From a virus: a DNA stretch of 64,000 bases. The DNA lies in IMG/VR virus record IMGVR_UViG_3300034101_001153, positions 32,177 to 96,176 of that record, one strand, 5' to 3'. The notes beneath the pieces are model-generated. The model was not told where the DNA came from, made no database searches, and was given only the letters and a program-made list of their open reading frames with translations. The translations under genes were made by a program, and so were the position numbers. Numbering within the stretch: the stretch's first letter is position 1; each line of letters begins with the position of its first letter. Positions 62,170-63,595 of the stretch are shown piece by piece.

Positions 62170-62727
62170 ATGATTACAGTTACCGCCCCTGAGGGCACCA
62201 TCGAATACGCTACCTATGCCGCTCGCTTTGAGAGCCTTATCATGACCGCCACCCTCGCGCAGATGGAGCAAGCCTCCGTCTGGTATCGTGACGCGGAGGA
62301 GGTTGCGGAGGAGGTTGCTCGCAACCTTGACACTACCCTAGAGGTAGGCGCATCCATTGTCGCAGCATTCTCGCCGCGTGAGCGTTGGTCCACTAACGTC
62401 GCTAAGGCTATCGCGTTCTCGCTTGGCTCGCGTCCCGCTGGCCTTGGCAATAACCTCCGCATGGCAGATGCCGCGCTCGCGGCAGGCTTCGATGCGCTCA
62501 AGGGTCCTAAGACTAACGCTTTCGCTCGCGCTATCGCAGGCGACACTAACGCGGTTGTCATTGACGTTTGGATGATGCGTGCGGCAGGCATGGAGACTGA
62601 CTCTCCTAATAAGACTCAATACGCTCTACTGTCTGAGGCTGTCACCGCTGTCGCTGCACAGTTTGGCATCACGCCTCGCACCGCGCAGGCTCTTATCTGG
62701 ATCATCGTGCGAGGGGGTGCGGCGTGA
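62170..62727 (+). CDS. conserved phage protein, possible HhH-GPD glycosylase-like fold, leaderless
   Basis: WY...AAFSP...W...GPKTNAF...VVIDVW...QALIW. Confidence 0.65.
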   Translation: MITVTAPEGTIEYATYAARFESLIMTATLAQMEQASVWYRDAEEVAEEVARNLDTTLEVGASIVAAFSPRERWSTNVAKAIAFSLGSRPAGLGNNLRMADAALAAGFDALKGPKTNAFARAIAGDTNAVVIDVWMMRAAGMETDSPNKTQYALLSEAVTAVAAQFGITPRTAQALIWIIVRGGAA

Positions 62728-62919: not shown

Positions 62920-63032
62920 ATCATTATTAAGATAATTATTACGGAGTCACTGAAAAAGTCACTGAAATTTTTCTTGATGCTGTCAGACCCATCTGCTATA
63001 TTTATATCACCTAGACAGAAAGGATATCCGTT

Positions 63033-63188
63033 ATGGCAAAGAATAAGGGAAACAAGTTCTCATATCTTGAGACTTGGAACACTCGCTACGGGACTCAGAC
63101 TCGTATTGTCACCCGTATTAATGGCAAGTTCGTTGATTCCACCCCCGCACTTGAGACACTTCGCAAGGGCGTCCCTGCTGGTCGCTGA
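63033..63188 (+). CDS. 51-aa basic hypothetical (MAKNKGNKF...)
   Basis: Motif promoter plus SD GAAAGGA; not in track. Confidence 0.75.
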   Translation: MAKNKGNKFSYLETWNTRYGTQTRIVTRINGKFVDSTPALETLRKGVPAGR

Positions 63189-63197
63189 CTAGCAGAA

Positions 63198-63227
63198 TGA
63201 TCCTGGGCATGATCGCTAAAACTGCCT
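63198..63227 (+). ncRNA. H-type pseudoknot motif, copy 1
   Basis: GATC-CTGGGCAT-GATC-GCTAAAAC-TGCCT. Confidence 0.6.
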
Positions 63228-63314
63228 GAGGGGACATGCGATCCGCTATCACACCTTGTTTGGCGAATGGAGGGTGGGATTCCTTCCTAAGATAGCATCA
63301 ACTCGCTTCCCCTC
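63228..63314 (+). ncRNA. candidate multi-helix ncRNA abutting tRNA-Leu
   Basis: GAGGGGA/TCCCCTC, GCGA/TCGC, GCTATC/GATAGC, CACCTT/AGGGTG. Confidence 0.55.
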
Positions 63315-63316
63315 TA

Positions 63317-63398
63317 GCCCAAGTGGTGGAATTGGCAGACACGCACGACTCAAAATCGTGTTCCGCTTGGAGTGTGGGTTCAAGTCCCACCTTGGGCA
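63317..63398 (+). tRNA. tRNA-Leu (CAA)
   Basis: GCCCAAG/CTTGGGC, CACGA-CTCAAAA-TCGTG, variable arm, GGTTCAAGTCC. Confidence 0.95.
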
Positions 63399-63504
63399 CG
63401 CTAGTTATAGCACCTTGGACAATGCACCTGTATACAGAGAGGGTCGCAACCAATCATATATAGGGCCGAGATTCAAGGTCACTAGGCAAGCAACTCATAT
63501 ATGA

Positions 63505-63531
63505 CTTCCTGAGCATGAAGATAAAAGGCTC
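63505..63531 (+). ncRNA. H-type pseudoknot motif, copy 2
   Basis: CTTC-CTGAGCAT-GAAG-ATAAAAG-GCTC followed by a T-tract. Confidence 0.6.
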
Positions 63532-63595
63532 CTTTTTCTTGATAATGTCAGACCCATATGATAGAGTTCTACTACCTACTAAGAAAGGAAGCATA

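Follow-up and report, generated by a model that had tools for sequence, protein, structure and literature searches.

The described structure that comes closest to the element treated here is coremin, which consists of a 4-bp hairpin with C as its first loop base and of the spacer GUUAAACUAC, with an interaction between loop and spacer and an obligatory downstream helix (PMC10520033, PMC10321173). Coremin stalls Xrn1 as well as scanning ribosomes and stimulates frameshifting (PMC10520033, PMC10321173), and the Xrn1-resistant coremin loops in PMC10520033 all begin with CG, with the consensus YGAD or YGNNAD. Here we describe a small pseudoknot (PK) of phage DNA that shares parts of this layout. 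Two copies were studied in the virus record IMGVR_UViG_3300034101_001153 (96,176 bp, record ends repeating 69 bp), of which we analysed a stretch of 64,000 nt corresponding to positions 32177-96176 (hereafter the window). An earlier note, made from the letters of the window alone, had proposed two covarying mini-pseudoknots around a non-coding block, and both copies lie exactly where it had placed them. Comparison with phage contigs confirms both as members of a family of compact H-type RNA PKs, one of them canonical and one weakened. As to its role we tentatively propose that the PK is a nuclease-proof boundary, which would cap the 3’ end of the upstream message. Literature searches found no published account of such a phage PK, which is no proof of absence.

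A compact pseudoknot family with covarying stems

A search for relatives through the DUF7178 protein (185 aa) encoded beside the locus led to 40 IMG/VR loci, in which the same element recurs with differing stem-1 sequences. A collection-wide pattern (CCTGRGCAT, 4-16 free bases, AAACTGCYC), in which R and Y were left free and most of stem 2 was fixed, matched in at least 120 stretches, and among the matches listed R and Y of stem 2 (S2) are complementary in 192 out of 193 (A-U 156, G-C 36). We aligned 150 distinct copies from phage contigs, among the matches listed. In this alignment 96.5% of the cells are paired, versus 24-40% when the 3’ partners are slid by 1-3 columns, and the observed covariation score was reached by none of 500 shuffles. 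All 150 copies form the pairs 5-18 and 6-17 of stem 1 (S1), in which each of the four Watson-Crick types is represented; C-G closes S1 in 149 copies, and the R/Y pair of S2 is AU in 127 and GC in 23 copies and never unpaired. Because the earlier patterns had fixed most of stem 2, we ran a descriptor scan with free stem-2 sequence, which yielded 165 matches as compared to 12 in reversed-sequence controls and included the compensated S2 variants TGGACA/TGTCCA, TAGACA/TGTCTA, TAAGCA/TGCTTA, TGAACA/TGTTCA and TGGCCA/TGGCCA. S2 contains 70 G.U pairs over 266 copies, which fits an RNA of the PK’s own strand and not DNA or the opposite strand. The proposal that stem 1 differs in sequence and still pairs while stem 2 covaries is thus upheld by the larger alignment, in which both stems keep their covariation.

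The family consensus of ~28-33 nt reads, in its 5’ half, S1 of 4-6 bp with a closing C-G pair, a single C as loop 1 (L1), S2 as U-RRRY-A, a junction U and S1’; in the 3’ half it continues with loop 3 (L3), composed of N1-9 and (U)AAAC, and S2’ as U-RYYY-A. Stem 2 comprises six pairs. Of 193 copies, 96 have an S1 of 4 bp, 58 one of 5-7 bp and 25 one of 3 bp, while in 14 it escaped detection in this register. C directly follows S1 in 152 of the 165 descriptor matches, and the family loop reads C-U-G-R-G-C-A-U, so that its second base is U and its third G. L3 ends in TAAAAC in 77 copies, in ATAAAC in 39 and in TTAAAC in 32, each time with U as the next base, and GACGTTAAACT is present in 6 of 266 copies. 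This consensus supports what had been anticipated from the two copies, a compact H-type family in which the CUGRGCAU loop is fixed and the linker is rich in A.

Both copies lie ~500 bp from the right end of the record, and the early region resumes at the left end. The features of the locus are as follows (window positions, all on the plus strand):

62974-63002, plus: predicted promoter P1, with -35 TTGATG, a 17-nt spacer and extended -10 TGcTATATT
62981-62990, plus: TGTCAGACCC box inside P1
63033-63188, plus: open reading frame (ORF) of 51 codons (ORF51), with TGA stop at 63186-63188, 10 nt before S1 of copy 1
63199-63228, plus: PK copy 1, canonical; 29.2 bits with the covariance model, in whose training set it is contained
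63228-63314, plus: 87-nt structured RNA with a 7-bp closing stem (63228-63234/63308-63314); fold of -33.5 kcal/mol
63317-63399, plus: tRNA-Leu (CAA), tRNA call
63400-63504, plus: 105-nt foldable segment, beginning directly after the tRNA-Leu 3’ end; fold of -29 kcal/mol
63505-63532, plus: PK copy 2, weakened; ends 6 nt before the -35 of P2
63539-63567, plus: predicted promoter P2, with -35 TTGATA and extended -10 TGaTAGAGT
63546-63555, plus: TGTCAGACCC box inside P2
63596-63742, plus: ORF of 48 codons, in the next unit, started by the predicted P2

In copy 1, S1 is formed by GATC 63199-63202 and GATC 63211-63214, L1 is C 63203 and the junction is T 63210. Its S2 joins TGGGCA 63204-63209 to TGCCTG 63223-63228 in six pairs, two of them G.U, and its L3, GCTAAAAC at 63215-63222, ends in AAAAC. 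In copy 2, CTTC 63505-63508 pairs with GAAG 63517-63520, with C 63509 as L1, T 63516 as junction and ATAAAA 63521-63526 as L3. The S2 strands TGAGCA 63510-63515 and GGCTCC 63527-63532 form only four pairs (63511-63514/63528-63531), and copy 2 has neither the A-U pair at the junction nor the conserved C that precedes S2’. The four-pair stem 2 of the first description hence applies to copy 2, but not to copy 1 or the family, which have six pairs. At the site of copy 2, metagenomic contigs show a canonical ...AAAACTGCTCA in one relative and the GGCTCC variant in two others. After copy 2 comes CTTTTTCT, which is at the same time part of the promoter repeat, and a terminator scan gave no call at either copy.

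Taken by itself the window offers thin evidence for a repeat family: CTGRGCATGA occurs three times exactly and seven times with one mismatch versus 8.9 expected, and a covariance model search of the window returned these two copies only, both part of the training alignment. A third copy is found outside the window at genome positions 1954-1981, with UGGGUA/UGCCUG as S2 (two to three G.U pairs). A 331-aa ORF, the counterpart of the relatives’ DUF932 genes and assigned to the family through them, stops 5 nt upstream of this copy, and a 75-nt tRNA-Trp(CCA)-like RNA without ARAGORN call, followed by tRNA-Asp, begins 3 nt downstream. Conserved tRNA-like RNAs of ~75 nt are also present between the PK and tRNA-Asp/Tyr in loci L005 (7777-7849), L013 and L015. 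They have a very short D-loop and CCA in the anticodon loop, were called as tRNA-Trp by ARAGORN in L006 only and may be non-canonical phage tRNAs.

P1 matches the consensus at 9 of 12 positions with TG present, represents the same repeat as P2 and is predicted to start the unit that carries both copies. No family was found for ORF51 in Pfam or PADLOC; relatives L010 and L011 have the same C-terminal ...ctggtcg and stop, followed by the PK. When the 1.3-kb PK region was compared with cultured phages by BLAST, tRNA-Leu was the only match. The DUF7178 protein neighbouring the PK block (window 62170-62727) has its sole cultured-phage relatives (~35% identity) in Mycobacterium, Gordonia and Rhodococcus phages and in one Tunturiibacter phage, a weak hint of an actinobacterial host. 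In the tRNA cluster of the window, an eighth tRNA-model match (36 bits) is located at 2369-2450 on the minus strand, where ARAGORN made no call.

The PK is widespread among IMG/VR phages, many of its carriers being unrelated to each other; the hosts include Rhodobacteraceae, actinobacteria, cyanobacteria and gut Firmicutes, and it is also found on some bacterial contigs. A BLAST search of cultured phages with a 33-mer gave intergenic matches in Lentibacter phages ICBM1 and ICBM3, Mycobacterium phage Labelle, Paracoccus phages ParMal1 and ParKuw1, Synechococcus phages S-EIVl and S-RIM4, Arthrobacter phage Molivia, Nostoc phage NMeng1 and human-gut phage NatCom_3357. In ICBM1 (vB_LenP_ICBM1, host Lentibacter sp. 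SH36) the genes on either side of the PK are those for RNR and glutaredoxin. Further matches lie under an annotated glutaredoxin gene in ICBM2 and under annotated hypothetical proteins in two more gut Firmicutes phages. One lineage of Vibrio phages has a genuine variant, and a match in Aeromonas was rejected as not being a PK. The scan of bacterial genomes gave mostly chance matches, with 96 of 122 lacking S1 and showing random R/Y (51 versus 45), while 25 looked genuine.

Placement at the ends of genes and transcription units

The genomic context was counted for roughly 230-266 distinct copies. We found the PK between two genes running in its own direction in 95 cases, between convergent genes in 5 and between divergent genes in 2, and never antisense to both neighbours. 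Regarding the distance from the upstream stop codon to S1, 5 nt is the most frequent value (29 cases), with 12 cases at 6 nt, 8 at 7 nt, 6 at 8 nt and 12 at 9 nt, and only 3 cases fall below 5 nt. With the stop codon in the A site, a distance of 5 nt sets the first pair at about +12 from the P site, just beyond the helicase or unwinding boundary of the ribosome at about +11, so that the fold would start just outside the terminating ribosome and could come no closer without being opened by it. On the other side, the start of the following ORF is usually located 19-38 nt beyond the end of the PK (12-40 nt among many copies), and the Shine-Dalgarno sequence is outside the fold. In three annotated phage records the PK sits in a ~60-nt spacer between co-directional genes, 5-12 nt past the stop codon, and in two of these it ends ~20 nt before the next start codon.

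A canonical tRNA is located within 8 nt downstream in 22 of 179 copies, typically with a spacer of 3-5 nt (Leu, Glu, Asp, Trp, Asn, Ser, Val), and in nine more at 60-100 nt, with the gap occupied by a tRNA-sized RNA; 128 of the 179 copies of the sampled loci have no tRNA downstream. The spacers of 3-5 nt equal those between the tRNAs of the same arrays (3-4 nt). In the crAss-like phage cr7_1 (NC_055895.1) a canonical PK (L286:501-540) lies within the intervening segment of a permuted tmRNA gene, with 3 nt between its end and the 5’ acceptor piece of the tmRNA downstream, so that the rule is a position just before an RNase P site, broader than tRNAs.

This placement raises the question of an RNase P or tRNA-processing signal, in which the coaxial stack of S2 and S1 would mimic an acceptor/T-arm minihelix and act as a tRNA-like unit of the array; RNase P could cut in loop 1, or the PK could shape the 5’ leader for correct tRNA processing beside a translated ORF. 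Such a role would account for the equal spacing before tRNAs and before the tmRNA 5’ end, and RNase P is universal, matching the breadth of hosts. RNase P RNA is known to cut H-type PKs in loop 1 given a 3’ RCCA (PMC12710915), and C is indeed enriched at +1 after the fold (48% of copies), with CC at +1/+2 in ~18%. The RCCA that RNase P would need is not conserved, however, with CCA in 14 of 262 copies. Moreover, the base at -1 is C and not the favoured U, S1 varies from 3 to 7 bp and the stack is therefore not fixed at 12 bp, and most sampled copies have no tRNA downstream. We consider a dedicated processing signal quite unlikely.

In the relatives of this phage there are 7 cases in which 9-19 nt separate the end of the PK from a TGTCAGACCC promoter box downstream, and 4 cases with the order PK, tRNA-Leu, TGTCAGACCC box. 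Conversely, for 185 TGTCAGACCC boxes with extended -10 in the fetched loci, only one doubtful PK was found within 120 nt downstream. Since PKs precede promoters and almost never follow them, the element belongs to the end of the upstream unit and not to the next leader. The 3’ flank is G-depleted over ~8 nt (3-11% G) and unstructured, and a T-run follows the PK in 34 of 262 copies (13%) versus 9 of 261 (3.4%) in a control 25 nt further on. Each PK goes with its upstream neighbour, which is either the end of a gene or the end of a transcription unit.

Among the upstream neighbours DUF932 genes (phrog_1221) stand out with 23 of 100, a frequency that looks like the conserved gene order of one phage clade; others include RNR, SSB, helicases and methyltransferases. 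The downstream neighbours are diverse (nucleases, PhoH, helicases and others), and this diversity of neighbours leaves no apparent regulon. A link to FmdB-type zinc-ribbon genes was tried and dropped, with 4 downstream cases only and none upstream. In a subfamily (L109, L121, L125, L136, L059 and L070) a hairpin with YCGCUA-like loop and RGGAU precedes the PK; these copies stand before genes starting with MYEYRVKK or before FmdB-type zinc-ribbon genes, and the functional RNA may be larger in this subfamily. On the bacterial contigs L245 (~1620-1710), L238, L200, L215, L237, L233 and L267, tiny Cys-rich ORFs enter the PK in one constant frame, for example MDITVKYMLRPVAHCKEGCSRLSWA. They have good ribosome-binding sites, and their stop is the UGA of cUGAgca or gcaUGA. 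These units of mini-ORF and PK are located upstream of Rrf2-family regulators, of an AhpD-like gene or of an intrinsic terminator, and may constitute leader-peptide switches.

The bacterial mini-ORFs bear on a further possibility, namely that the PK is bound by a conserved protein, by the ribosome or by RNA polymerase. It could then control or enhance translation of the next gene, mediate processive antitermination or contact the ribosome as tmRNA PK1 does. Such a role would be suited by the leader-like ORF whose stop lies within the fold ahead of Rrf2-family and AhpD-like genes in bacteria, by the strong conservation of the unpaired L1 C, U9, junction U and AAAC, by the PK end 19-38 nt before many start codons and by an architecture that may resemble tmRNA PK1. 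Yet no co-occurring protein family was found, DUF932 reflecting what looks like clade gene order, the downstream genes are mutually unrelated, and for the copies ahead of tRNAs or promoters a translational role makes no sense. A binding site of this kind appears distinctly improbable to us.

The block between the two copies of the window had been seen as an early non-coding RNA operon framed by PKs, a view that is not borne out by the relatives, whose contigs carry ORF51, PK, tRNA-Leu and promoter but lack copy 2 as well as both extra RNAs, of 87 and 105 nt. The 87-nt RNA starts at the last PK base (0 nt) and ends 2 nt before tRNA-Leu, and no Rfam family matched it at E<=10; the idea of a hidden tRNA was dropped for lack of any tRNA-model match. 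Homologs with ~90% identity are found directly downstream of tRNA-Leu in L003 and L007, and its 42-nt core (63250-63291) occurs within another closing stem in a metagenomic contig, so that it resembles a small portable RNA belonging to tRNA arrays. The 105-nt segment, likewise without a match to a known family, has an 85% identical copy directly after tRNA-Glu in L021/L022 and follows a different tRNA in one metagenomic contig, which marks it as a portable module. As these extra RNAs are absent at this place in relatives and tRNA-adjacent elsewhere, the block is a mosaic of portable modules in the style of tRNA arrays, and the apparent bracket an incidental by-product of modular shuffling.

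A candidate boundary at RNA 3’ ends

Our preferred reading, held with considerable reserve, is that the PK is a self-folding boundary element in the sense transcript at the ends of genes and transcription units; from its placement we infer both the nuclease resistance and the end that would be protected. The upstream side is favoured because the PK precedes promoters and does not follow them and because of the tight coupling to stop codons, and hosts that span phyla fit a physical block that is independent of proteins. At this locus the P1 transcript would contain, in this order, ORF51, copy 1, the 87-nt RNA, tRNA-Leu, the 105-nt RNA and copy 2. The ribosome would terminate 10 nt before copy 1 and hence leave it folded, RNase P and other tRNA-processing cuts would free the structured RNAs, and the ORF51 message would then end in the PK as its 3’-terminal structure. 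With its two stems coaxial, this structure would have S2 locked by the single C of loop 1 and the groove of S1 occupied by the A-rich loop, and the remaining tail of 0-5 nt would be too short for 3’-5’ exonucleases to engage. Where the PK stands 3-5 nt before RNase P sites, cleavage would leave a 3’ end with a tail of just this length, 3-5 nt. Copy 2 would render the same service, more weakly, at the 3’ end of the unit just before P2.

Several observations weigh against a 3’ boundary. Copy 2 is weakened and the genome holds only three copies, and the loop bases (L1 C, U9, AAAC) are conserved beyond what plain stability needs. In L098 and L099 the PK follows ~7 nt after an extended -10-like TGTATAAT, which suggests a 5’-terminal role in these phages. 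On the bacterial contigs L233 and L267 a normal terminator lies ~12 nt after the PK and would make a 3’ cap redundant, and caution is called for because a mini-ORF that ends inside the bacterial PK is not explained by a simple 3’ cap. The closest published look-alike, coremin, blocks enzymes that move 5’-3’ and not 3’-5’. Lastly, 17 public RNA runs with small shares of the stretch consisted of contigs only; four of them showed the arrangement of relatives, with no transcript ends.

The four roles suggested in the earlier note fared differently: exonuclease block and processing signal stay the leading candidates, while ligand sensor and type III antitoxin decoy find no support. Searches with Rfam 15 (gathering threshold and E<=10) of the window region, 8 phage and 8 bacterial loci gave tRNAs and noise only, so that no Rfam family claims the element. 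Since preQ1-I (RF00522) had no model match in any of these sequences at E<=10, nor pistol and other small self-cleaving ribozymes in the window region and the 8 phage loci, preQ1-I, pistol and other catalogued small PKs are excluded as families. A riboswitch-like ligand sensor of preQ1-I type would share the topology of S1, short L1, S2 and A-rich L3, and the invariant C residues could pair with a ligand. The other riboswitch models likewise gave no match at E<=10, however, the 1-nt junction leaves no obvious pocket, and there is no expression platform, as neither a Shine-Dalgarno sequence nor a terminator is sequestered; in addition several copies per genome stand beside unrelated genes and tRNAs. 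We therefore regard a ligand sensor as highly improbable. Control of queuosine or preQ1 genes was rejected in the same way, with diverse downstream genes, common tRNAs and the Shine-Dalgarno sequence outside the fold, and a role as -1 frameshift stimulator was discarded because the ORFs stop before the fold and slippery heptamers are found in 11 of 264 copies versus 5 of 264 in the control.

A decoy RNA like those of type III antitoxins would have a size close to that of ToxI repeats. The two copies are not tandem, though, no toxin-like or defence protein is found nearby, and PADLOC gave no match for five neighbouring ORFs. Together with a chance repeat without function, which the covariation across many phage contigs rules out, this explanation is barely credible.

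Broader than the boundary at single gene ends is the proposition that phages of many bacterial phyla carry a protein-independent ‘armour’ PK of ~30 nt structurally akin to coremin, which would set and protect RNA ends in polycistronic transcripts; we hold this to be somewhat doubtful. If it is true, RNase P would provide mRNAs in the arrangement of ORF, PK and tRNA with a capped 3’ end, as a bacterial-virus counterpart to the MALAT1 triple helix and mascRNA, and the PK would be, as far as we found, the first RNA class resistant to exoribonucleases to be described in the prokaryotic world. Nuclease resistance would also link phage RNA biology to the exoribonuclease-resistant RNA (xrRNA) elements of eukaryotic viruses, help to explain the partition of mRNA-tRNA co-transcripts and provide a tiny portable stabiliser or insulator for engineered operons. 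The strict placement points to a general, host-independent marking or protection of RNA ends in phage operons, and the cultured phage-host carriers make the function directly testable.

Comparison with known RNA structures

Small H-type PKs with a one-base L1 and an L3 resembling UAAAAA, positioned just before the coding start, are known as tmRNA PK1 and as the leader PK of T4 gene 32. These have other sequences, are single-copy and have a dedicated partner (ribosome/SmpB and gp32, respectively), whereas the phage PK is multi-copy and context-independent. In MALAT1 and MEN-beta a triple helix lies directly upstream of a tRNA-like RNA cleaved by RNase P, and the RNase P cut yields a protected 3’ end. 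The likeness of these RNAs to the phage PK would be purely positional, as they are eukaryotic nuclear long non-coding RNAs and their triple helix, built from U-rich and A-rich parts, is of another architecture.

ToxI consists of tandem repeats of ~36 nt beside a ToxN-like toxin gene, in contrast to two PK copies 306 nt apart without a PADLOC match. In the PK substrates of RNase P (TYMV-TLS/biotin-aptamer type, PMC12710915) RCCA follows S2’ at the 3’ end, which is not a conserved feature of the phage PK. The preQ1-I aptamer is an H-type PK of ~34 nt with an A-rich 3’ tail (...AAAAC and S2’) and in this respect similar; unlike preQ1-I, the phage PK has a junction (L2) of 1 nt instead of ~6 nt, does not sequester the Shine-Dalgarno sequence and has no queuosine genes nearby. 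Similar in build are also the -1 frameshift PKs of luteovirus type, such as that of BWYV (28 nt), which are likewise compact and H-type, with a short L1 that contains C, a one-base junction and an A-rich L3 in the minor groove of S1, and which stand 5-9 nt past the decoding site. The phage PK differs from them in following stop codons, outside overlapping ORFs and without an enriched slippery heptamer, and in being found also before tRNAs.

The comparison with coremin leads to the main rival of the 3’ boundary, according to which the PK is a roadblock that stalls a 5’-3’ exonuclease such as RNase J or another 5’-3’ motor. As the prokaryotic-virus counterpart of xrRNA_C it would protect what lies downstream, that is, the 87-nt RNA, tRNA-Leu and the next cistron. 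Rhodobacteraceae, actinobacteria and cyanobacteria possess RNase J, and most cultured carriers infect members of these groups. The Vibrio host is not known to possess RNase J, and the genuine variant in a Vibrio phage lineage weakens the rule of a restriction to hosts with RNase J. The PK is located 12-40 nt upstream of many start codons, which fits a roadblock, and bacterial RNase J1 is blocked by a flaviviral xrRNA in vitro (PMC5760640). The layout of coremin with its 4-bp hairpin, C as first loop base and loop-spacer interaction (PMC10520033, PMC10321173) is shared, its spacer ...GUUAAAC-U... has a partial counterpart in the phage L3, and the GACGTTAAACT of six copies amounts to 11 bases of the coremin 20-mer. 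The second helix that coremin needs for Xrn1 resistance is available as the 7-bp stem at 0 nt after copy 1 and elsewhere as tRNA acceptor stems at 3-5 nt. Most copies, on the other hand, are followed by no helix but by the G-poor flank, and the loop begins with CUG and not with the required YG. Furthermore, the PK lies upstream of promoters in this phage family, so the primary transcripts of the next unit are without it, and tRNAs need no 5’ protection. We judge a roadblock to be unlikely.

Unlike in coremin, the loop of the phage PK has 8 nt, stem 2 is a regular Watson-Crick helix of 5-6 bp, and a downstream hairpin is found only at copy 1 and the tRNA-adjacent copies. The hosts of the phage PK are bacteria and thus without Xrn1, and where coremin is a mechanical block to Xrn1 and ribosomes, a corresponding resistance of the phage PK is proposed by analogy. 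Coremin/xrRNA_C of BNYVV, cucumoviruses and other RNA viruses (PMC6546385) has the 4-bp hairpin with its first loop C bridging as L1, as in the phage PK, and its spacer ...GUUAAAC-U... nearly equals the phage L3, with the CUAC part replaced by UGCYCA. Coremin is also placed alike, in 3’ untranslated regions or between genes, where it sometimes embeds a stop codon.

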